The notes: a model not told the origin generated them from the letters alone. A DNA stretch of 64,000 nucleotides from Nitrospirota bacterium (GCA_963754875.1 CAVWHO010000016.1:32001-96000); one strand, 5' to 3'. Counted from the stretch's first letter, positions 47,319 through 64,000 are shown. Numbers and translations are program-made.

Positions 47319-49252
47319 TCAATAGACGCCGATCACTTTTCCCATCTCCGAAATATCATAGCCCCCCATGGCCACGATCTGGTCCCGGAATGCTTTGTCC
47401 TCACGAATGATGGCCAAGAGCGCCTGCATCATGGGCATGTCATAGAACTCCTGTCGTGATTGCCAGATCATACCGCTCCTGCGCCACAGGGATGAAATCC
47501 AGCTGGAGCGCCTGGGCTGCAGAGAGTACGGCAAGCCCCGTATCCGCTGCCCCGGAGAGCACGGCGGCAGCCACGGCCATGTGCGTAAATTCCTCGTGAT
47601 CATACCCTTTTACATTCTTTGGGTCAATCTTTAATCGTTTCAAGTACAGGTCCGTCAGAAGCCGCGTGCCTGCGCCGGCCTGGCGGTTCACAAAGACCAC
47701 GTCCTCGCGCACAAGGTCTTCGAATCCTTTGATGCCCTTCGGATTGCCTTGGGGAACAATGAAGCCCTGGGTCCGGTACACGAGGTTAATGAGCACGGTT
47801 TTTTGGTCCAGGAAGCATTTTTTTGATATAGCTTACGTTATATTCCCCCGTCTCCTCGTCAAGAAGATGGGTCCCGGCGAGATGGGCCTCCCGGCGCTTC
47901 AGCGCCAACAGCCCGCCCATGCTGCCCACATGGGCCGAGGAGAACGAAAACTCGGGATGTTTTTTCTTGAGGAAGTTCGCAAGCACGTCGAGCACATTGT
48001 CGTGAGAGCCGATACAGACGATCGTGTTCTCGATATCGTGGGAAGAACGAAGCAGTTCGACCGTTACCTCGTGGTTCGATGCAATACCCTCGCTCGAGGC
48101 CGGTACGCGGATGATGCCGTCAGCGCGTACGAGCGACATGAGTGCCCCGGCCCCCCGGGTCACTGGCGTGGCGATCAGGTTCCCTGCGACGCTGCCGAGC
48201 TTGACGCGGATGAATTCCTCCTGCCCCAGCGATGACGCCACCTGGCGGCTCAGCTTTGCCGTAATCGTTCCCGGGTTAGGAGGCATAGTGCCGAGGAGGG
48301 CGTAGATGAGCGGCTTGACGAAGAGATTGAACGTGAGCGCTGCCGAGACCGGATATCCGGGGATGCCGACGACCGGTTTCCCATTCACGATGCCCAGAAT
48401 GACCGGCTTCCCGGGTTTGATCGCGACACCGTGCACAACGACCTTGCCAAGGTCGGCGATCACATCGGAGGTAAAATCCTCTCTCCCGGCTGACGAGCCG
48501 GCGTTGATCACCACGATATCCGAGTCAGCGAGTGCAGCAAGAATCGTCTTGCGCAGGAGAGCGGCATCGTCCTTGACGATGTTCTTGCGAATCGCATGGG
48601 CGCCACACTCGCTCGCCATCGCGGACAGCATGGTTGAATTGAAATCGATGATATCGCCCTTTTTGGGTAGGCTCCCCGGATCGACCAGCTCCGTTCCCGT
48701 AGGGATGATCGAGACAACGGGCCGCGGTCGCAACATGACTGAGGTATGCCCGCTCGCGATCATGGCGGCCATGTCCACAGGACGGACCACGTGGTTCTCG
48801 GAGATGATGAGCTCCGTTGCAACGATGTCCTCGCCCACGAGCCGCACATGCTGCCACGGAGTGGACGGCTTCAAAATTTCGATCTCGGAGTCGGAAACTT
48901 TTTCCACGTCCTCGATCATGATCACGGCGTTAAACTCATCGGGCAGGGGATCGCCGGTGTCGATGGCAACGGCCTGGGTCGGTACTGTGAGGCGTTTGGG
49001 TCTTGTTTCTGCGGCGCCGAAGGTGTCGATGAACCGGACGGCGTAACCGTCCATAGCAGCGGAATGGTAAAAGGGCGACGAGATTTTCGCGATCACGGCC
49101 TCGGACGTGACCCGGCCGAGCGCATCGCCTACTTGTATGCGTTCTCCTCCAAGCGATCCGCCAAGAACGGCGGTTTTGAGCGCTTCTTGATATTTCCGGA
49201 TTGCATCGGCAAGCGGCTCGTTATCGAGATATTTTTTTTGCTTGAATGCCAT
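47319..49252 (-). CDS. moeA: MoeA fused to a C-terminal PBP/LysR-type substrate-binding domain, split by two +1 frameshifts (about 47810 and 47457)
   Basis: SPFYHSAAMDGYAV, GSSAGRED, IKPGKP, GYPVSA, IGSHD, HVGSMGGL, then FVNRQ.GAGTR, THMAVAAAV, ERYDL, MGGYD. Confidence 0.88.
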
Positions 49253-49381
49253 ATTGAGTGACCTGTCTGTTTCGCGGGGGTTATCCCGCCATCCCACGGT
49301 GCGTGATCAGCACAACCTCCGACTGGCGAGGCGAGGTTTTTTTGTTTCGACCTGTCACGGTGCCTCTGTGGCGAACATCCT

Positions 49382-50662
49382 TTAAAACAATCTCACTTCC
49401 ACTTCTTCACCTGCTTCGATCCCGATTTTTTTTATTGGCACAACTACCGTGCCCACCGCCTTGACCAGCGTGCTGATAAGCCCTGAAGCGCCGAAGATGG
49501 GCCGGGCCCAGAGCCCGTCGTCCCGTTTTTCGAGCGCTACGCGAACATGGTCCTCGCGGCCGGGGCTGGAGGCGATACTTCGCGCGAGACGCGCCCTGAC
49601 CGTGCGATAGGGCGTTACATTTTCGAGTGCAGGATCAAGGATCTCGCCGGCCAGACGGGTGAGTACCGGCTTAACAAAAAGCTCGAAGCAGATGCTGACT
49701 GCTGCCGGGTGGCCGGGCAATCCGAAGATCGGGACAAGGCCGTGGGACGACCCGACGAGGCCGACGACAAGGGGCTTGCCCGGTTTGATCGAAACACCGT
49801 GCACAAGTACGCCGGGCTGACCTGCACCGTTGATCACTTTTGCAGTGAGATCAGCCGTGCCGACCGAACTTCCGCCGGTCATCAGGACAAGAGCGCTGTC
49901 CTTGACCGCTCCATCGAGCGTTTGCCGCAGGCTTTCGTACTCGTCACGGATGATGCCCTTCTTCACCGGTTCGCCGTAACATTGCCTTATCAGACCTTCT
50001 AAATTATAAGAATTGCTGTCTCGTATCTGGCCCGGTCCTAGGGCCGCGTCTGCAGGTACGATCTCATTCCCCGTCGAGATAATGGCCACTTTCGGTTTTT
50101 TGAAAACACTGATGCTCATGATGCCCACGCTTGCGAGCGCCGACATGTCCTGAGGGCGCATGCGGTGGCCGCGGCCGAGGATGGTCTCGTCTTGTTTGAT
50201 GTCGTCTCCGGCCTGGACGATATTTTCCAGCGGTGCAACGGACTTCACGACTTCGATATTACCGGCATCGACGGACTGGGTCTGCTCGAACATGACGACT
50301 GCATCGCCGCCCTTCGGCAGTGCGCCGCCGGTGGCGATCTTCATGGCTTCGCCTTTGGCAAGGGTACGATCCGGCATAGTCCCCATAAGGATATCGCCCA
50401 CGACATGAAGAAAAGCCGGCCGCGATTCTGCGGCTCCGAACGTGTCTGCGCTGCTAACCGCATATCCGTCCATGGTAGACCGGTCAAACTCGGGAAGGTT
50501 CGAAGGGGAGATAATGTCATTCGCGAGGACACGTCCCAAAGCGGAGCTGATCGAAATCTCTTCCGTGGAAAGGCCAGGGAGGACAAAGTGCTCGTTCAGG
50601 ATCTTGAGTGCATCCTCACGGGTAATAACACCGCTCCTGCCAAGCATGTCTTTAACGGTCAT
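49382..50662 (-). CDS. moeA: Molybdopterin molybdenumtransferase MoeA
   Basis: LPEFDRSTMDGYAV, IATGG.LP.G.DAVVM.E, GQIRDSN, GGSSVG, KPGKP. Confidence 0.93.
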   Translation of the reverse strand: MTVKDMLGRSGVITREDALKILNEHFVLPGLSTEEISISSALGRVLANDIISPSNLPEFDRSTMDGYAVSSADTFGAAESRPAFLHVVGDILMGTMPDRTLAKGEAMKIATGGALPKGGDAVVMFEQTQSVDAGNIEVVKSVAPLENIVQAGDDIKQDETILGRGHRMRPQDMSALASVGIMSISVFKKPKVAIISTGNEIVPADAALGPGQIRDSNSYNLEGLIRQCYGEPVKKGIIRDEYESLRQTLDGAVKDSALVLMTGGSSVGTADLTAKVINGAGQPGVLVHGVSIKPGKPLVVGLVGSSHGLVPIFGLPGHPAAVSICFELFVKPVLTRLAGEILDPALENVTPYRTVRARLARSIASSPGREDHVRVALEKRDDGLWARPIFGASGLISTLVKAVGTVVVPIKKIGIEAGEEVEVRLF

Positions 50663-53639: not shown

Positions 53640-56240
53640 TCATAACGCTCCAACCGTCTGAACGCCCGTTCTGAAAACGAGATGTCTGTTCTCGCGGTCG
53701 ATAACCACCCGCGTTCCTTCCTTCACTTCCCCGGAAAGGATCTTCGAGGCAAGCGTATTCAAAATTTCCCGCTGGATCACCCGCTTGAGCGGCCGTGCGC
53801 CGTACATGAGGTCGAAGCCATCTTCGGCCATCAGCTCTTTCGCACCGTCGGTAAGTTCGATCTCTATTTTCTTGTCCGCCAGCCGCTTCTGGACCTGACC
53901 GACCTGGATCGCAACGATCTTTTTCAACACCTCCGCATCGAGTGGATGGAAGATGATCGTGTCATCGACGCGGTTCAGGAATTCAGGCCGGAAGTGCTGT
54001 CGCATCGCCTCCGTCACGCGTCTCCGCATCTCGTCCTCGTCGTTCTGGAGGTCCTGAATATATTGACTCCCGATGTTCGACGTCATGATGACCACCGTGT
54101 TCTTAAAATCCACTGTCCGTCCCTGGCCGTCGGTAAGCCTGCCGTCGTCAAGGAGCTGGAGCAAAACGTTAAACACTTCGGGATGCGCTTTCTCGATCTC
54201 GTCGAAGAGAATCACGGCATAGGGCCTGCGACGGACCGCTTCGGTAAGCTGTCCCCCTTCTTCATACCCGACGTATCCGGGAGGAGCTCCGATCAGGCGG
54301 GAAACCGTATGTCGCTCCTGGTATTCGGACATGTCGATGCGTATCATGGCCTGCTCGTCGTCGAAAAGAAACTCGGCAAGCGCACGCGCGAGTTCGGTTT
54401 TGCCCACACCCGTGGGCCCCATGAAGATGAAGCTCCCGATCGGCCGGTTCGGGTCCTGGATCCCTGCGCGGGCACGGCGCACTGCATCGGACACGGCAAT
54501 GATCGCGTCGTCCTGGCCGATGACACGCATGCGCAGGCGGTCCTCCATATGAAGGAGCTTCTGCATCTCGCCCTCGAGCATCTTGCTCACCGGAATACCG
54601 GTCCACTTGGACACGATCTCCGCCACGTCCTCCTCGTCAACTTCCTCTTTCAGGATCTTTGTCTCGGCCTGCACGGCACTCAGTTTGACCGATTCCGCGT
54701 CGAGCTGCTTCTGCAAATCGAGCAGCTTGCCGTAGCGCAGTTCCGCCGCACGGCCGAGATTGCCTTCCCGTTCGGCCTTCTCAGCTTCGATCTTGGCCTT
54801 TTCGATCTGTTCCTTGGTGCCCCGTATTTTCTGGATGCCCTCTTTTTCCGATTGCCACTGCGCCCTGAGGCCGCTTTTCTTTTCACCGAGCTCGGCGATT
54901 TCCTTCTCTATCTTCGCGAGCCGCTCGCGCGAGGCCGGATCATGCTCTTTTTTTACGGCTTCGCGTTCGATCTCGAGCTGCCGCGTCCTGCGTTCGACCT
55001 CATCAAGTTCGGTCGGCATGCTGTCGATCTCCATACGGAGGCGCGAGGCTGCTTCATCTATCAGATCAATGGCCTTGTCGGGAAGGAACCGGTCGGCAAT
55101 ATAGCGGTGCGAAAGGATCGCCGCGCTCACCAGCGCCGCATCCTTGATCTTGACGCCATGGTGGATCTCATAGCGCTCCTTGAGACCGCGCAGAATGGAT
55201 ATTGAGTCCTCGACTGATGGTTCGCGCACAAGTACCGGCTGGAACCGCCGTGCGAGCGCCGGATCTTTCTCAATGTGCTTGCGGTATTCGTTCAAGGTCG
55301 TTGCGCCCACGCACCGGAGTTCGCCGCGGGCAAGGGCCGGTTTCAGCATGTTCGATGCGTCCATGGCGCCTTCGGCTGCCCCTGCTCCCACGACGGTATG
55401 GAGCTCGTCAATGAATAAAATCACCTCGCCGCTCGCTTCGGTCACTTCCTTGAGAACCGCCTTGAGCCGGTCCTCAAATTCGCCGCGGTATTTTGCGCCG
55501 GCAATGAGGGCACCCATGTCGAGCGCAATGACGCGTTTGTCCTTGAGCCCCTCAGGCACGTCACCGGAGACGATACGCTGCGCGAGCCCCTCGGCGATCG
55601 CGGTCTTGCCCACGCCCGGCTCGCCGATAAGCACCGGGTTGTTCTTGGTCCTGCGGGAAAGCACCTGGACCACGCGCCGGATCTCTTCATCCCTGCCGAT
55701 CACGGGATCGAGCTTGCCACGCCTGGCCAGATCGGTCAGATCCCGCCCATAACGGGCCAGGGCCTGGTACTTGTCTTCGGGATTCTGGTCCGTAACACGC
55801 TGGCTGCCGCGGATATCGACGAGGACCGTAAAGATCGCGTCTTTGGTAACCCCGTGCCTCGCAAGAATGTCCCGGGCCGCGCCGTCGCCGTCTGCAGCCG
55901 CGATCAGGAGATGTTCGGTGCTCACATATTCGTCCTTCAGCCGCTCAGCTTCCTGTTCGGCACGCTCGAACAACTTGCCGAGACGCGGAGAGAGATAGGT
56001 CTGCACCAGCCCTTCGACTTTCGGAAGTCTGTTTAAAACATCCTCAATATCCCCCTTGATCCTCCCCGGGTCTGCACCCAGTTTTTTGAGCAGGGGAGGA
56101 ACAACCCCATCCGTCTGCTCAAGCAGCGCGAGCAGGAGATGTTCCGTTTCAATGTGCTGATGATGCCGCTTCGCCGCGCCGTCTTGCGCTGTTTGCAGTG
56201 CCTCTGACGCTTTCAACGTTAATTTATCGAACCGTGCCAT
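53640..56240 (-). CDS. clpB: ATP-dependent chaperone ClpB
   Basis: Two AAA+ modules ([16 protein letters not shown]), long middle coiled coil, GYVG loop. GGAGG RBS before MARF. Confidence 0.97.
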
Positions 56241-56260
56241 GCTAACCTCCGTATGAATCA

Positions 56261-56360
56261 ACGAGAGACGACAAATCCTGATGGATATCGTTCGCTGCGC
56301 TCACTCGGATGATGGACGAAAACCTTTGCGCCCTTCATCCTTCGTCCCTCATCCCTCGTT
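56261..56360. repeat. Heptamer inverted repeat of the same family as 31061-31154
   Basis: Shares the cgctcactc/gttcgct core and gatggacgaaaa; right arm ccttcatccttcgtccctcatccctcgt. Confidence 0.65.
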
Positions 56361-56729
56361 TCTAATAATCCGGATCCTTCTCACCGGCACGAGGGCGTTC
56401 CGCAGCTCTTCCCTGCGCCTCATCTCGCGGGCAAGTTCCTCGCGGAGCTGCAGAATAGTATCCTCCATTTCCTTCTGCATCTGCTCCATTTTCTCGCGCA
56501 TCGAGAGAATAACTTCCACACCGGCGAGGTTCACGCCGAGTTCCCTCGTGAGCCGCAGGATCATCTCGAGCTTTTCTACGTCTTCCTCGGAATAAAGCCG
56601 CGTGTTCCCATCGCTCCGCTTGGGCTTGATGAATCCCTCACGCTCGTAAAGCCTGAGTGTCTGGGGATGGATCCCCAGCATCTCCGACACGACGCTGATC
56701 ATGAATAGCCGGTGCTCACGCGATGCCAT
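56349..56729 (-). CDS. hspR: Heat-shock repressor HspR (MerR family)
   Basis: ISVVSEMLGIHPQTLRLYEREG..P.RS.GNTRLYS..D...LTRELGVNLAGV; lies between dnaJ and clpB. Confidence 0.92.
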   Translation of the reverse strand: MASREHRLFMISVVSEMLGIHPQTLRLYEREGFIKPKRSDGNTRLYSEEDVEKLEMILRLTRELGVNLAGVEVILSMREKMEQMQKEMEDTILQLREELAREMRRREELRNALVPVRRIRIIRNEG

Positions 56730-56804
56730 AATTTGTTCCTTTTGTACCAAGACAACCATGTTGCCGTTTTTTTATTTACGCCGACGCGGTCGGCTCGCTC
56801 CACA

Positions 56805-57935
56805 TTACCTTTTCCTGAACCCCCTGAAGGTAATAGCGCTCCTCGGGTTGGAAGGGTGTAATCGGTCAAGCTCCCGAAGGAGTTCCTTGCCTCGATCAGA
56901 AAGTCCTATCGGCGTAACGACTTTAATCGTCACGTAGTGGTCACCTACGCCTACGCCGCCGAAATGGGGCACGCCTTTGCCTTTCAGTTTCATCTGTTGG
57001 CCCGTCTGCACCCCCTCCGGAAGGGTCAGAGATACGATTCCGTCAACCGTCGGGATCTCGATTTTCTCTCCCAGCGCAGCTTCCTTGACGGTAACGCTTG
57101 ATTCCGAATACAGATTATCGCCTTTCCGTTCGAAATAGGGGTGCGACCTCACCTTGGTTACAATATATACATCACCCGGAGGTCCGCCTTTTTCGCCGGG
57201 ACCGCCTAAGCCTGCCATACGTACTTTGGAACCGTTGTCAACACCCGGAGGGATCTTCACACTGATCCGGTCCGCCTTGGACGTAACTCCCCGGCCCGCG
57301 CAGTTCTTGCAAGGATTCTGATTGATTGTTCCTTCGCCGCGGCAGGTGGGACAGGGCTGCGCGATTTGCATGAATCCTCTGCCCTGCGAGATGCTCCCTG
57401 TGCCCATACACGTCGGGCAGGTACGGGGCGTGGTCCCCGGCTGCGCACCTGAGCCGTTGCAGACCGTACACGTTACTTCACGCTGAAGGTCAACCTGCAT
57501 GGTTTTACCGAGGATTGCATCCTCCAGGTCGACCTCGACGGCATAGGTAATGTCCTCACCTTTTACCGGTCCCCGCTGTCTTGCGCGCTCACTGAATATA
57601 TTGCCGAATATGTCCTCAAAGCCGCGAACGCCGGAAAAACCAGCGTTGCGCCCAAACCCTTCAAACCCCTGCCCAGGACCGGCACCTTGTCCAAAACTCT
57701 GATCAAATGCAGCATGGCCGAACTGATCGTACTGCTTTTTCTTTTTTGCGTCCGAGAGTACCTCATAAGCTTCATTGATTTCCTTAAACTTCCCCTCGGA
57801 AACTTTATCTCCAGGGTTGACATCTGGATGGTATTTTCTCGCGAGTTTTCTGAATGCCTTCTTTATTTCAGATTCAGTAGCGCCTTTTTTTATGCCGAGG
57901 AGCTCGTAATAATCTTTTTTTGTCGTTGGTCCCAT
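56805..57935 (-). CDS. dnaJ: Chaperone DnaJ
   Basis: J-domain with HPD, G/F-rich region, four CxxCxGxG repeats. Confidence 0.96.
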
Positions 57936-59936: not shown

Positions 59937-60218
59937 GGAGACCTCCTGTTTGCAGTAACGGGAAACGACGCCTGCCCGCACGAAATCACGATCCTCGGGC
60001 GATTTTCTGCTCCCCTGATTTTCAGGGTACCGGCATTACGAGTATGCCGGTAACGAGAGCTTCTGTCAAGTCTTCATGAAGCTCACTTCGCCAATTGCAC
60101 GATCTAAACATGGTCAGAGGAGAAGGTTTCTGGTATACTTTTTCTTAGTAACTCTTTTCCTCCACAAACTTCAGACTTCACGCCTCTTCACATCGATTTT
60201 CTTGTATAAGGAGCGTCC

Positions 60219-63200
60219 ATGAACCATTATCGATTCGATGTCGCTATTATCGGGGCCGGACCTGCCGGAGTAGCTGCTGCAGGATCGCTCGCCGGCTCCG
60301 GTATAACCGTGGCTCTGGTTGAAGCTGGTGTGTACGCCGGGGCCGAAAACTGGTCCGGCTGCGTTTACTTCACGGAAAACCTCGCTGAAAAGGATTGTTT
60401 CGGCGCCGAAGCAATAGAGGCGGCCCCTTTTGAACGGCGTATTGCGCGCCGGGGCACTCTTATGCACAACGGGATCGACGTCATCGGCATCGAACTTACG
60501 AGTCTGGAGGCATTCAAGAACTGCTATACCGTTCTCCGCCCTGTCTTCGATCCCTATTTTGCTCATCTTGCCCGGGAGAAGGGCGCGGTCCACATCACCG
60601 GCACGACGGTGACCTCACTCATCAGGAAAGAAGGAAGGGTCGTCGGCGTCATGACGGATCGCGGTCCGCTTTATGCCGGCGTCGTTTTCCTGGCAGAGGG
60701 CGATGCTTCTCACCTTGTCCGGTCGGAGCAACTCGAGAACACCGCGCAGCCGCACTTTCTTCAGGGAGTGAAAGCCGTACTTTCGCTCGCGTCGGAGGAG
60801 ATCGAAAAACGGTTCAAACTCGATCCGGGCAAAGGCGCGGCCTACGAACTGCTCCTTCGGAACCCTTCCCTCTCCGGCAGGACCGCAAAACTGAACGTCG
60901 GCGGTTTCCTGTACACAAACCGGGACAGCCTTTCGATGGGCTACGTTGTCCCCCTCGACAATCTGCGGGACTATTACCGTGGCAGCCACGACATGCTCTT
61001 TGAATGGATGCGAGGCCTTCCGTATCTCCGGGAACTGACCGAGGGCGCGGCGCTATCGGCTTACGGCACGAAGATCATCAGAAGCGGTGGATGGCGCGAA
61101 CGGCCCGTGCTCGTTCAAAACGGCCTTGCAGTCGGTGGAGCATCAACGGGCCTCGGCGTGGACATTCCCTTCCCGAACTTCACCGGCCCTGCATCCGCAA
61201 CAGGACTCTATTTCGCGCGGGCAGTCAAAAATATTTTCAAACGAGGGGGCGCCTTTGATGCCAAAACACTGAGCCGGGAATATCTTGAGCCGCTCCTCGA
61301 AAGCGTACATGGGGAAAACTCCCGCTATCTTTCCGCGTGGCCGGGCTATTTCGGGAAATCGAACGTCCTCTTCAGCAGGACCGTGGACATGGCCTGCGGC
61401 AGCGTTCACTTCTTGTCAAAGAAAGATATTGTCGAAACAGGGCGGTTTCTCAGAAACCATGTCCTTTCCGTTCGGGGGATCAAGGAATCAATCGTTGACA
61501 CGATGCATGCAATCAGCGCGCTCAGGCTCTGGAGGCCCCTGGCAAAAACAGTGATCAATCCCCTGACGATCGGTCGCTGGTTCGCCAATCTTTTTAAAAG
61601 AGCGCCCGCCCCGGACCGGAAACTCGGCTTCATCATACAGATTGCCGGAAAAGAAAGGAACGCTGCGTCGCTGCCCTGGCCTACGGGCTCGCTTGTCAGA
61701 CGGCTCTCTCCTGCACTTGTCCTTGCGCTCGAACAGATCTATGCAAATGACAACCGGCCTGCAGAGAAAAAGTTTTCTCACGCTGTCCGGAGTCTTCTGC
61801 AGGGACTCAAGCTGACTGATTTCATAATCCTTCCCGCCTTTGGCTTCGTTCTCGTTTTCTTTGCGCTCGGAACTGCGCTCTGGGATGCCTTTCGTTTCTA
61901 TTTGCTCAAGACGCCTGTGGACAAGCTCCTTGCGGAACCGGTCATGGCGTACAATGAATCCCTAAGGAAAGCGCGTGATCTCGACGCAGTGAAACCCCGG
62001 CAGAGCCTGGAGGCGAAACTGGCGACGAACACCTACCATGTCGGGGACGCGTCGCACATCAGGACGCTCTGGCCCGAGGCTATCCCCGCCCATCCGGACA
62101 TGTCTCAGGCAGCGCTCTGGTGGCTATGCCCTGCGCGGGTCTACGTGTACGACGCTCCACTCGCAGGCCGCGGCAAGGTCACGGTAAACTTCGAGAACTG
62201 TATCAAGTGCGAATCCTGCTGGAGGGCGGAACCTCAACGCGTGCTCTGGGGGCGCCACACAGATCACAAGCTTATTTACCGGCCCGACAGCGCAGCGATA
62301 CCGGTTCTCCTGCATGCTCTTCGGGAAAATCTCCCTTCAAGAAAAGGGACGCATCCGGCGATTGCCCCCCTGGACGAAAAGCTCTGGTACCTGAACGAAG
62401 ACGTGCTGCAGCTTGGACAGGAGGCGTTCAATGCATCATCGGCTTTCATTGATGCCGTTGCAAAGCTGCCCGCTTCGTCCGACCGAGGCAGAAATGCCTG
62501 GCCGCTTTCGCTCGGGAAAAGACTGTCCGAAAAACTCTTGAAGCTCGAAGCCGCTTTCACGAACGACGGCAGATACGCGCAGGCTGAAATTATTCAGGTC
62601 GAAAGGAAAGACATCGAGCTCAAGCTTACGGAAGGAAGACTTCTCCATGCGCTCTATTGCTGCCGCAGGTTTGAGCAGGGCATTCTGTCGTGGGTGCGTG
62701 AGGATGATGGTTATACGATTCCCGCATCAACAGTGAAAAAATATGACCGCACCCTCTCTTACGAAGAAGTCTCCCGCATCTTCCCTGACCGGATCGTAAA
62801 ACAGTGGGAGGAAGAATTCATGCCCGATGCATGGGCAGAAACACTGCGGCAATTCATCCTCGAGCAGCGCGATAAACCGCTTGAGGCAATACGGGCGCTC
62901 TCCTCAGTGAACCCGGCCCTCGGACTGATTGCAGCGCACCAGCTTCTTGCCAATGAACTGCTCACGAAATCGAGTATCGAGCCTGGCCCGGGCATCTGCG
63001 CCGCAGCCGCCGACCATCTCGATATCGAAGAGGAGGGCAGCGGCAGCGTCCGCATAAAAGGCCCCCTGTCACTCGTCCCTATTGCGGCGAGCCGCACCCT
63101 GCTGCTCACGTCCGGTGGGAAAGGATACATTATCCCCCTTGCCGACGCGGGTGTTACGATCTCACACACGCCGACGATCGGGTTCAGGGCTGCGGGATTT

Positions 63201-64000
63201 GCCGATGTTTCGCTTGACGTGACCGTAACAACGTACGCTGTGCTATCGGCCGAAAGAACAGACATCCCTGAAGCTGCTTCCTACCTCGCCATCGCACTTG
63301 GAGCCGGCGACTACCTCTGCAAGAGGATAAAAGAACACGCTGCAGGAAGAGTTCAATTCCCGGGCCAGATGCTCGACACCGAGGGCAGGGATGGTATTGC
63401 GAAGCTCGGCGCAGTCAAGGCCATGATCGCCAGAACTGAAGCGTGGCGGCTCCTGCTTGAGAACCTTTACGACGTTTATGCCAAACCGGAAAGCCGAAAT
63501 CCGCAAACCGAAATGAATTTCTCCCTCATCTGCACTTCGCTCGCTGCCATGTCTTTCAGCCCGGAGCCGGGCGCCATGGGATACGATGCGGGCCAGGTCT
63601 TCGGCGGATTCGCGTACTCCGAAGACGACCTGCTCTCGCGGTTCTACCGGGACAGCGCTCTCTTCCGGTTCCTGGCGCCGGGATACGGCGCATCGACTAA
63701 GCTGCATGCCGCTCTCGTCTCCCTCAGTGATGACATCGTGTTTTCCGGCTTTGGCGACCTCGGAAAAATTCAAAATGCACCGCTCAGGGACTTCGTGCAC
63801 GGCCTTTCGGACGTTGAGAACAAATGCCGTACCCTGCCCGAAAAAGCAGATCCGGGTCTCACGGGTGAAGCGCAAGCCGTCATCATCGGCATTCGCAGGC
63901 TTCTCATCAGCATTGAAAACGGACTGAACCAGGGCAGGAGCACGGAACGAGAAGCTGCTGCCGCAGAAGTGCTCCTTGGTCTGGCGGAAGACGCGCTTCA
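60219..64000 (+). CDS. Giant multidomain flavoprotein: FixC/ETF-QO + hydrophobic helix + FixX-like [4Fe-4S] + acyl-CoA dehydrogenase-like module (3' end beyond window)
   Basis: Hand translation is open for 1260 codons from ATG 60219 (AAGGAG RBS): FDVAIIGAGPAG, GAENWSG, APFERRI, YTVLR..FD, AEG, GGFLYTNRDSLSMG; LCPARVY...NFENCIKCESC; RVQFPG...IAKLGAVKAMIA...AGQVFGGFAYSED..LSRFYRD. Absent from the ORF track, presumably because no stop lies in the window. Confidence 0.88.
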   Translation, partial: MNHYRFDVAIIGAGPAGVAAAGSLAGSGITVALVEAGVYAGAENWSGCVYFTENLAEKDCFGAEAIEAAPFERRIARRGTLMHNGIDVIGIELTSLEAFKNCYTVLRPVFDPYFAHLAREKGAVHITGTTVTSLIRKEGRVVGVMTDRGPLYAGVVFLAEGDASHLVRSEQLENTAQPHFLQGVKAVLSLASEEIEKRFKLDPGKGAAYELLLRNPSLSGRTAKLNVGGFLYTNRDSLSMGYVVPLDNLRDYYRGSHDMLFEWMRGLPYLRELTEGAALSAYGTKIIRSGGWRERPVLVQNGLAVGGASTGLGVDIPFPNFTGPASATGLYFARAVKNIFKRGGAFDAKTLSREYLEPLLESVHGENSRYLSAWPGYFGKSNVLFSRTVDMACGSVHFLSKKDIVETGRFLRNHVLSVRGIKESIVDTMHAISALRLWRPLAKTVINPLTIGRWFANLFKRAPAPDRKLGFIIQIAGKERNAASLPWPTGSLVRRLSPALVLALEQIYANDNRPAEKKFSHAVRSLLQGLKLTDFIILPAFGFVLVFFALGTALWDAFRFYLLKTPVDKLLAEPVMAYNESLRKARDLDAVKPRQSLEAKLATNTYHVGDASHIRTLWPEAIPAHPDMSQAALWWLCPARVYVYDAPLAGRGKVTVNFENCIKCESCWRAEPQRVLWGRHTDHKLIYRPDSAAIPVLLHALRENLPSRKGTHPAIAPLDEKLWYLNEDVLQLGQEAFNASSAFIDAVAKLPASSDRGRNAWPLSLGKRLSEKLLKLEAAFTNDGRYAQAEIIQVERKDIELKLTEGRLLHALYCCRRFEQGILSWVREDDGYTIPASTVKKYDRTLSYEEVSRIFPDRIVKQWEEEFMPDAWAETLRQFILEQRDKPLEAIRALSSVNPALGLIAAHQLLANELLTKSSIEPGPGICAAAADHLDIEEEGSGSVRIKGPLSLVPIAASRTLLLTSGGKGYIIPLADAGVTISHTPTIGFRAAGFADVSLDVTVTTYAVLSAERTDIPEAASYLAIALGAGDYLCKRIKEHAAGRVQFPGQMLDTEGRDGIAKLGAVKAMIARTEAWRLLLENLYDVYAKPESRNPQTEMNFSLICTSLAAMSFSPEPGAMGYDAGQVFGGFAYSEDDLLSRFYRDSALFRFLAPGYGASTKLHAALVSLSDDIVFSGFGDLGKIQNAPLRDFVHGLSDVENKCRTLPEKADPGLTGEAQAVIIGIRRLLISIENGLNQGRSTEREAAAAEVLLGLAEDAL

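Follow-up and report, generated by a model that had tools for sequence, protein, structure and literature searches.

We identified, at the end of a 64,000-nucleotide stretch of DNA from a Nitrospirota bacterium (GCA_963754875.1, CAVWHO010000016.1:32001-96000; referred to below, at its full length, as the window), a giant gene that joins in one reading frame a FixC/ETF-QO domain (ETF-QO, electron transfer flavoprotein:quinone oxidoreductase), a helical insert with a hydrophobic helix, a one-cluster FixX module, an acyl-CoA dehydrogenase (ACAD)-like module without the catalytic motif, a true ACAD, EtfB and EtfA, in this order. The fusion is real and old. With moderate confidence, and judging from sequence, we propose that the giant protein is a non-bifurcating acyl-CoA:menaquinone oxidoreductase serving a fadD-thiolase-fadB operon from which a dehydrogenase gene is missing.

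The open reading frame (ORF) begins with ATG at 60219 on the + strand and runs to 63998 as 1,260 stop-free codons, in agreement with the initial annotation of the window, and is open at its 3′ end. On the contig the same frame continues to a total of 2,639 codons (L002 2220..10139), and the gene end is equivalent to window position 68138. L002 is the window's own locus, window positions are L002 positions plus 57999, and the window corresponds to C16 32001-96000 of its own genome. The initial annotation had predicted a further ACAD and/or ETF alpha/beta domains, fused or adjacent; Pfam and PDB profiles place them on the contig, fused downstream in the same frame. In the domain calls, hits were graded as hidden Markov model (HMM; Pfam and NCBIfam), PDB-profile, Foldseek, AlphaFold2 (AF2) model or ESM-feature evidence. 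The gene and its parts are as follows.

60219..64000, + strand: giant gene, first 1,260 of 2,639 codons (ORF listing, translation, contig extension)
60219..61538, + strand: FixC/EtfC-type FAD quinone-reductase domain, residues 1-440 (HMM, PDB profile, AF2, Foldseek)
61539..62003, + strand: helical insert, residues 441-595 (outside the FixC match; 7koe_C ends at profile position 436)
61818..61886, + strand: hydrophobic helix, residues 534-556 (Kyte-Doolittle peak, conservation, AF2)
62004..62288, + strand: FixX/ETF-QO-type [4Fe-4S] module, residues 596-690 (C637, C661, C664, C667; PDB profile, Pfam)
62397..64000, last few codons past the window, + strand: ACAD-like module 1, residues ~727-1265 (remote profile match, AF2, ESM)
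L002 6090-7919, + strand: true ACAD (module 2, or ACAD2), residues 1291-1900 (Pfam N/M/C, PDB profiles, motifs)
L002 7920-8369, + strand: helical extension, residues 1901-2050 (contig translation)
L002 8370-9029, + strand: EtfB-like domain III, residues ~2051-2270 (4kpu_B 3.5e-15, 1efv_B 5.9e-13)
L002 9087-9629, + strand: EtfA domain I, residues 2290-2470 (EtfA profile match)
L002 9630-10136, + strand: EtfA FAD domain II, residues 2471-2639 (EtfA profile match)
L002 10137-10139, + strand: stop codon of the giant gene (contig translation)

Full-length relatives keep the fusion, a check that the initial annotation had called for. At E <= 0.001, 449 proteins match the giant protein, and 88 of the 119 listed relatives cover 100% of the query, with 33-84% identity and lengths of 2,620-2,865 aa. 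Their sources are metagenome-assembled Nitrospirota, Nitrospiria, Leptospirillia and Acidobacteriota and one 'Betaproteobacteria' bin, and their database names are only generic ('acyl-CoA dehydrogenase family protein', 'FAD-binding protein', 'ETF-quinone oxidoreductase'). A generic ACAD-pattern scan of genome contigs yielded one true relative among 80 loci, and residues 560-1260 were instead queried against 401 genomes of the phylum. Strong matches (E <= 1e-98) were found in 48 of these genomes, including 39 of 63 in the window's family (its own genome, which also matches, was not counted), all seven of a second family and one other; none has a stop inside its best match, and whole frames span approximately 2,600-2,760 aa. 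Five further weak hits in this search were short unrelated frames.

Sequence comparisons were based on 22 loci (20 fetched full loci, L003 and L002). The frame is uninterrupted in all of them, 21 being complete and one (L125) reaching the contig end, and forms of 2,798-2,888 aa at 33-40% identity have the same Pfam order. Across five pairs, dN/dS was 0.04-0.56 in 10 of 11 regions, although for EtfA domain I one pair had an undefined dS and hence no value. The exception was the 19-residue EtfB-EtfA linker, for which the values were unstable (three pairs at 0.27-0.48, one at 3.8 and one undefined). It is hardly credible, then, that the modules are separate genes joined by an assembly or indel error. 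A few entries and genomes do show shorter or split frames (P0089, P0096, G173, G227 and G242, in the last of which one weaker fragment carries TGA), but the short database entries have ends that fall inside domains and look like broken calls; P0089, for instance, stops midway through the ACAD middle domain, which suggests a broken call rather than a natural split. Opposed to such an error are the uninterrupted loci, which come from independent assemblies, the full-length listed relatives and the purifying selection over all domains in one frame. Stops between the modules and a failure of the HMM assignments were the two outcomes named in the initial annotation as fatal to its proposal: no such stop occurs in any of the 22 loci, and HMM and PDB profiles back both FixC and the downstream ACAD.

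The N-terminal domain had been assigned to FixC/ETF-QO, and FixC is the closer of the two. It matches NCBIfam FixC (PRK10157) at 2.8e-38, with 131.7 bits against a 610-bit cut-off, which makes it a distant member of that family. Among PDB profiles, T. maritima EtfC (7koe_C) scores 1.3e-49 over positions 4-436 and ETF-QO only 1e-15. The AF2 model of residues 1-700 (pTM 0.81) has 7koe_C as best Foldseek match (3.1e-26, TMt 0.79), followed by ETF-QO 2gmh (8.9e-18). A GAGPAG sequence at residues 12-17 corresponds to the GxGxxG FAD fold, and G12, G14, P15 and G17 are invariant. The domain is predicted to reduce menaquinone.

The 155-residue helical insert that follows has no counterpart in FixC or ETF-QO and is modelled by AF2 as helices at pLDDT 84-94. 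Within it, the hydrophobic stretch FIILPAFGFVLVFFALGTALW (residues 535-555, 61821-61883) lies where it had originally been placed and represents the sole strong hydrophobic peak of the protein (Kyte-Doolittle 19-residue mean of 2.43, compared with 1.66 for the next highest). The hydrophobic character of residues 534-556 is kept in 22 of 22 sequences, and the segment is part of an AF2 helix (534-561) with pLDDT >90. The initial annotation had taken the protein to be membrane-tethered; we regard the segment as a candidate membrane anchor, a role that is possible. A true transmembrane helix was considered and, by reasoning only, judged unlikely, since one membrane span would leave FixC on one side and everything else on the other. 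The segment may instead be buried or act as a surface or monotopic anchor.

The four-Cys set reported earlier was located as described, with the Cys of CPA at residue 637 (62127) and CIKCESC at residues 661-667 (62199-62219), and the FixX-like nature of this module is upheld by profile comparison with the PDB: it matches both the cluster domain of ETF-QO (2gmh 525-566, E 0.0013) and T. maritima EtfX (7koe_D 2-68, E 0.0027). Pfam Fer4_ETF_QO is weak here (0.0043-0.009) and reaches 5.8e-5 to 6.9e-4 in distant relatives. C637, C661, C664 and C667 are invariant (18/18 and 22/22 sequences) and align to the C528...C553-C556-C559 region of 2gmh, residues which we take to be the cluster ligands. EtfX carries two [4Fe-4S] clusters. 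The Cys-rich stretch of 7koe_D ahead of CPA aligns to a Cys-free stretch in the giant protein, and with these extra Cys residues absent a single cluster is expected, as in ETF-QO. Whereas FixX/EtfX is a separate small subunit with two clusters, the module described here is fused and has one Cys set.

The true dehydrogenase lies beyond the window. ACAD2 was detected by Pfam (M 4.9e-16, C 4.4e-17, N 0.0058) and by PDB profiles (CarC 3.4e-49; ACAD9/VLCAD ~5e-46), and LTEPxAGSD, KMWITNG and (I/V)YEGTNE are present in 22 of 22 sequences, which places it among ACADs with the catalytic-Glu motif included. The canonical ACAD of the same genome, to which ACAD2 is 32% identical, has an R-x-Q-F-G stretch that is missing from ACAD2, and its Q-x-x-G-G-x-G-Y corresponds to E-x-x-aromatic-G-P-x-G-Q in ACAD2 (one sequence having G-A-x-G-Q). 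ACAD2 also contains two large insertions, one of ~130 aa that follows the N domain and another of ~105 aa within the beta domain.

The ACAD-like module that the initial annotation had recognized inside the window, from RVQF (residues 1044-1047, 63348) and QVFGGFAY (residues 1126-1133, 63594-63617), is indeed related to ACADs, albeit remotely. The PDB profile of module 1 matches 4m9a_A at E 0.0018 over ACAD positions 190-366; ten listed ESM hit sets score 0.92-0.93, nine of which carry ACAD Pfam families; and the AF2 model has the helix, beta and helix domain order of an ACAD, with pLDDT of approximately 80-92. A model of both ACAD modules has VLCAD/ACAD9 as best Foldseek match (2.3e-7, 12-14% identity over ~540 columns), a match not assigned to either module. 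Module 1 is probably not the dehydrogenase itself: R-(V/I/L)-Q-F and G-Q-x-F-G-G occur in 22 of 22 sequences, but YEG is absent from all 22 and there are no equivalents of TEPxAGSD or WITN. It has neither the catalytic base nor FAD motifs of its own, and its kinship is at the fold level only. We take the two retained motifs to be the cross-subunit FAD contacts of canonical ACADs.

A similar division is known from alpha2beta2 ACADs. According to excerpts of PMC11153573, in ChsE4-ChsE5 and ChsE1-ChsE2 isoalloxazine binding, the catalytic Glu and the substrate site all belong to the alpha subunit, and the ADP-ribose of FAD is contacted by the beta subunit. This split of labour, together with the complementary motif loss in the two modules of the giant protein, suggests an intramolecular alpha/beta-like pair with one FAD, in which module 1 is probably, by analogy, the FAD-ADP-contacting partner of ACAD2.

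The C-terminal part contains EtfB domain III and EtfA domains I and II and thus qualifies as an ETF. In PDB profiles EtfA matches CarE (2.4e-24) and human EtfA (1e-22), with Pfam ETF_alpha at 2.6e-17, and EtfB matches A. fermentans 4kpu_B (3.5e-15) and the canonical 1efv_B (5.9e-13). R2549, T2567 and H2587 are invariant in EtfA domain II, at positions that presumably correspond to the ET-flavin residues of human EtfA. Conservation is very different in the ETF base, i.e., EtfB and EtfA domain I, where a bifurcating FAD would sit. Invariant columns amount to 4% in EtfB and 4% in EtfA domain I, compared with 27% in FixC, 38% in FixX, 42% in the ACAD2 C domain and 23% in EtfA domain II; dN/dS is highest in the base (0.19-0.56, vs 0.04-0.22 in FixX and ACAD2); and the stretch aligned to DGDT-x-QVGP of bifurcating EtfBs is lost in 4 of 22 sequences, the four most distant ones. 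This pattern favours a base that serves as a scaffold without a bifurcating flavin.

The alternative is a bifurcating or confurcating machine that merges Bcd-EtfAB and FixABCX, with a second FAD and NAD(H) bound in the ETF base and the electrons of NADH split between a low-potential carrier and menaquinone or enoyl-CoA. We assign it a small but appreciable probability. The best PDB matches of the giant protein do include FixC of T. maritima EtfABCX, CarC and CarE of caffeyl-CoA reductase and A. fermentans EtfB, but for the ETF subunits the canonical proteins are nearly as good, as the values above show. Many of the 22 sequences keep D/N-G-D/E at the DGDT position, but the motif is lost in the most distant four and both base domains have few invariant columns. 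Although the organism is an anaerobe with dsrAB, the giant protein has a single FixX cluster where EtfX has two, neither a ferredoxin nor a flavodoxin gene was found as a conserved neighbour in the 22 loci, and the same genome has a separate Fer4-EtfA/EtfB/ACAD set.

For the non-bifurcating acyl-CoA:menaquinone oxidoreductase we propose the following route. Acyl-CoA would reduce the FAD of ACAD2, on which module 1 would pack like the beta subunit of alpha2beta2 ACADs, contacting the ADP part of this single FAD. The mobile FAD of EtfA domain II would take single electrons from the ACAD2 flavin and hand them to the single [4Fe-4S] cluster, which in turn would reduce the FixC FAD. Menaquinone, at the surface of the membrane, would receive the electrons from the FixC FAD, and the conserved hydrophobic helix may anchor the protein there or hold the quinone site in place.

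The genomic setting provides a possible role for such a protein. The window's own genome has dsrA and dsrB, two MqnA/MqnD-family hits, three ACAD loci and three EtfA loci. Another of its contigs (C13) carries fadD (572 aa), a thiolase gene (427 aa) and fadB (706 aa); this operon contains neither an ACAD nor an ETF gene. For the family, 38 genomes with a completeness of 90% or more were analyzed; the giant gene is present in 24 of them and absent from 14. At 62% identity or more, the C13 FadB has an orthologue in all 24 giant-positive genomes and in 4 of the 14 giant-negative ones, and G081 is the one genome of genus g3 in which either gene occurs. Half of the giant-positive genomes (12 of 24) have no ACAD_M hits other than a ~390-aa gene, which occurs in all 38 genomes, and the giant gene itself; most giant-negative genomes have a FadB type of 800 aa adjoining a 600-aa ACAD. 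On these comparisons, the giant protein would probably supply the missing dehydrogenase-to-quinone step for the fadD-thiolase-fadB beta-oxidation operon located elsewhere in the genome.

A different substrate, namely an amino-acid-derived, aromatic-ring-derived or carrier-protein-bound thioester, would reduce the FadB co-occurrence to shared ancestry. We consider this improbable. The two large insertions of ACAD2, its low identity to the ACAD of its own genome, NCBIfam hits that fall far under all equivalog cut-offs and the position of the giant gene among housekeeping genes could all reflect such a substrate, but the best NCBIfam and PDB matches are of fatty-acyl, butyryl or VLCAD type, and the phyletic link to fadD-thiolase-fadB holds within genus g3.

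Several observations weigh against an acyl-CoA:menaquinone oxidoreductase built and employed in this way. The C13 FadB orthologue also occurs in giant-negative genomes (G158, G087, G200 and, as a partial copy, G123), and because related genomes are not independent samples, its co-occurrence with the giant gene is a lead and not a test. The flanks of the giant gene consist of housekeeping genes such as aspS, obg, proB, engA, metK and dnaJ/clpB, and clustering of the neighbouring genes in the 22 loci, with Pfam scanning of 43 such genes, revealed no conserved functional partner. The sequencing runs listed with the stretch include only DNA runs, in a small share, and no RNA run. The AF2 model is poor over the iron-sulfur module (pLDDT <50), and that of the two ACAD modules has a pTM of 0.52. 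Alignment of module 1 with ACAD2 by hhalign was not significant (E 0.42), and an internal duplication is therefore not claimed. Bifurcating and canonical ETFs are similarly good matches to the ETF module, so that a second FAD is possible. Finally, there is the energetics. The oxidation potential of acyl-CoA is about -10 mV. That of menaquinone is given as -74 mV in an excerpt of PMC10734219. With these values the transfer from acyl-CoA to menaquinone is uphill under standard conditions, and reverse flow or coupling to another reaction is therefore possible.

In reverse, a possibility also raised in the initial annotation, the same wire would be a menaquinol:enoyl-CoA reductase that serves either as an electron sink or in the reduction step of reverse beta-oxidation. 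This direction is unlikely. Electrons would flow downhill from menaquinol (-74 mV) to enoyl-CoA (about -10 mV), and the co-occurrence of FadB and thiolase fits either direction, but the co-occurring operon begins with the acyl-CoA synthetase gene fadD, which fits uptake and degradation, and the other ACAD-EtfBA set, in a fab cluster, could serve reduction. As for coupling, a hybrid of both ETF-based bifurcating systems, in which one chain couples NADH, a low-potential carrier, enoyl-/acyl-CoA and menaquinone, appears rather unlikely. If true, it would give anaerobic Nitrospirota a choice of high-potential outlet, either a soluble thioester or the quinones of the membrane, or a second, downhill reaction could pull the uphill acyl-CoA-to-menaquinone step.

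Two other gene clusters in this genome contain ACAD and ETF genes. On contig C20 (276000-288000; L151 2363-9620, minus strand), ACAD (385 aa), EtfB (266 aa) and EtfA with an N-terminal Fer4 domain (396 aa) are located inside a fatty-acid-synthesis cluster, plsX-fabH ... fabD-fabG, whose fabH is represented by two ORFs (203 and 135 aa). This set may be an ETF-dependent enoyl reductase for lipid synthesis; a ~390-aa ACAD with a near-identical score was found in 38 of 38 family genomes. Contig C11 (40000-59000; L153) has a classical anaerobic beta-oxidation cluster with an AMP-ligase, a FadB of HADH-ECH order and of another type than the C13 FadB, thiolase, a FadH-like reductase, a 661-aa EtfD-like CCG/Fer4 protein, EtfB and EtfA. 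A ~600-aa ACAD in this cluster is split into at least three fragments (154, 164 and 233 aa), as a result of either pseudogene formation or assembly frameshifts.

Upstream of the start codon, two signals were noted.

60111..60139 (L002 2112-2140), + strand: sigma-70-like promoter match, TGGTCA-17-TATACT with extended TG (consensus match only)
60208..60213, + strand: Shine-Dalgarno sequence AAGGAG, 5 nt before ATG (read from the sequence)

Promoter-like sites of this kind number 4 in the region, compared with 0.6 expected. Genes on either side are on the opposite strand or unrelated, and the giant gene looks monocistronic. Upstream, a heat-shock set on the minus strand (window 53640-57935) encodes ClpB (873 aa), a MerR/HspR-like regulator (136 aa) and DnaJ (376 aa). 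Just past the window, an Lcl_C/DUF1566 lipoprotein-like gene (L002 10512-11162, minus strand) converges on the end of the giant gene. Its homologue was found downstream and on the opposite strand in 4 of 22 loci, adjoining the giant gene in L002, L003 and L115 and four genes off in L113. It is followed by a 313-aa ORF (L002 11364-12305, minus strand), the C-terminal third of which is an ArsR-type HTH; its N-terminal part, by eye, resembles the tail of a pyridine-nucleotide-disulfide or sulfide:quinone-type oxidoreductase, and the ORF may represent a frameshifted or fused gene. Two adjoining small Cys-rich ORFs (105 and 120 aa; L002 15921-16642, minus strand) contain CWE(L/F)K(G/N)CGR motifs. 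Farther away, at window 47786-50662 (minus strand), there are two tandem genes for MoeA-type molybdopterin molybdenumtransferases, the second fused to a PBP-like domain, and then a thioredoxin-reductase-like flavoprotein and a GAF-GGDEF protein.

The architecture described here is real, conserved and built from known parts, and the function that we assign to it is likely. If correct, it provides a proposed function for several hundred giant proteins that now carry generic labels, and a better metabolic reading of soil and sediment Nitrospirota and Acidobacteriota genomes whose beta-oxidation otherwise seems to lack a dehydrogenase. It would also bear on the way in which sulfate-reducer-like bacteria couple the oxidation of acyl-CoA to menaquinone with its low potential, and it illustrates a way in which anaerobes may keep one electron route apart from their other ETF pools, two further ETF sets being present in the same genome. 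A single chain that holds all redox centres is new and fixes both stoichiometry and geometry, making the giant protein a good object for cryo-EM and for the kinetics of the ETF domain swing between donor and acceptor. Literature searches over the main text of papers returned no description of a protein joining all these modules.

In the textbook pathway, electrons from acyl-CoA pass through at least three freely diffusing proteins (ACAD, ETF and ETF-QO or FixCX). The four functions of this pathway recur in the giant protein, and their logical order is unchanged: first a flavin dehydrogenase, then a mobile ET-FAD domain, a single [4Fe-4S] cluster on C-x(23-24)-C-x2-C-x2-C, and finally an FAD quinone reductase. 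It differs in being one polypeptide, arranged as QO - FeS - ACAD′ - ACAD - EtfB - EtfA, and its quinone is probably menaquinone. Compared with ETF-QO, its flavoprotein is nearer to FixC and has the added helical insert with the hydrophobic helix. The FixABCX/EtfABCX systems (T. maritima 7KOE; A. vinelandii) share with it the best FixC match in sequence and fold, the N-terminal motif of FixX, and EtfA and EtfB. However, they consist of four subunits, bifurcate electrons from NADH and have two clusters in EtfX, whereas the giant protein is one chain with one cluster, a poorly conserved ETF base and an added ACAD pair.

Partial fusions of the same components are also known. As described in excerpts of PMC12288474, BCR of the F. 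nucleatum BOOR is a characterised ACAD fused to an EtfA FAD domain and rubredoxin, so that electrons are transferred inside the complex. We found no other ACAD-ETF fusion that has been characterised, and BCR is a precedent for intramolecular transfer from ACAD to EtfA. BCR differs in having no EtfB, EtfA domain I or quinone reductase, its electrons passing via rubredoxin to a flavodiiron protein and O2. Sulfolobus acidocaldarius SaETF has EtfB followed by EtfA in one chain (excerpts of PMC12042025), but it is a stand-alone protein, experimentally bifurcating, with two FADs and with partners encoded by separate genes. Another bacterial route from ETF to the quinone pool, outlined in excerpts of PMC8593149 and PMC2702500, combines EtfAB with a CCG-type membrane iron-sulfur oxidoreductase (EtfD of M. 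tuberculosis and the HdrF-linked EtfAB of Desulfobacterium). The cluster on contig C11 is of this kind; the quinone reductase of these systems (CCG/Fer4) is unrelated to that of the giant protein, and their parts are encoded by separate genes. The M. tuberculosis alpha2beta2 ACADs (ChsE4-ChsE5, i.e., FadE26-FadE27, ChsE1-ChsE2 and IpdE1-IpdE2) split their labour between two ACAD-fold chains in the manner outlined above, and the motif pattern of the giant protein matches such a division. In the giant protein, the predicted pair is instead found within one chain, as a beta-like and then an alpha-like module that are far diverged from each other, and forms part of a larger fusion.

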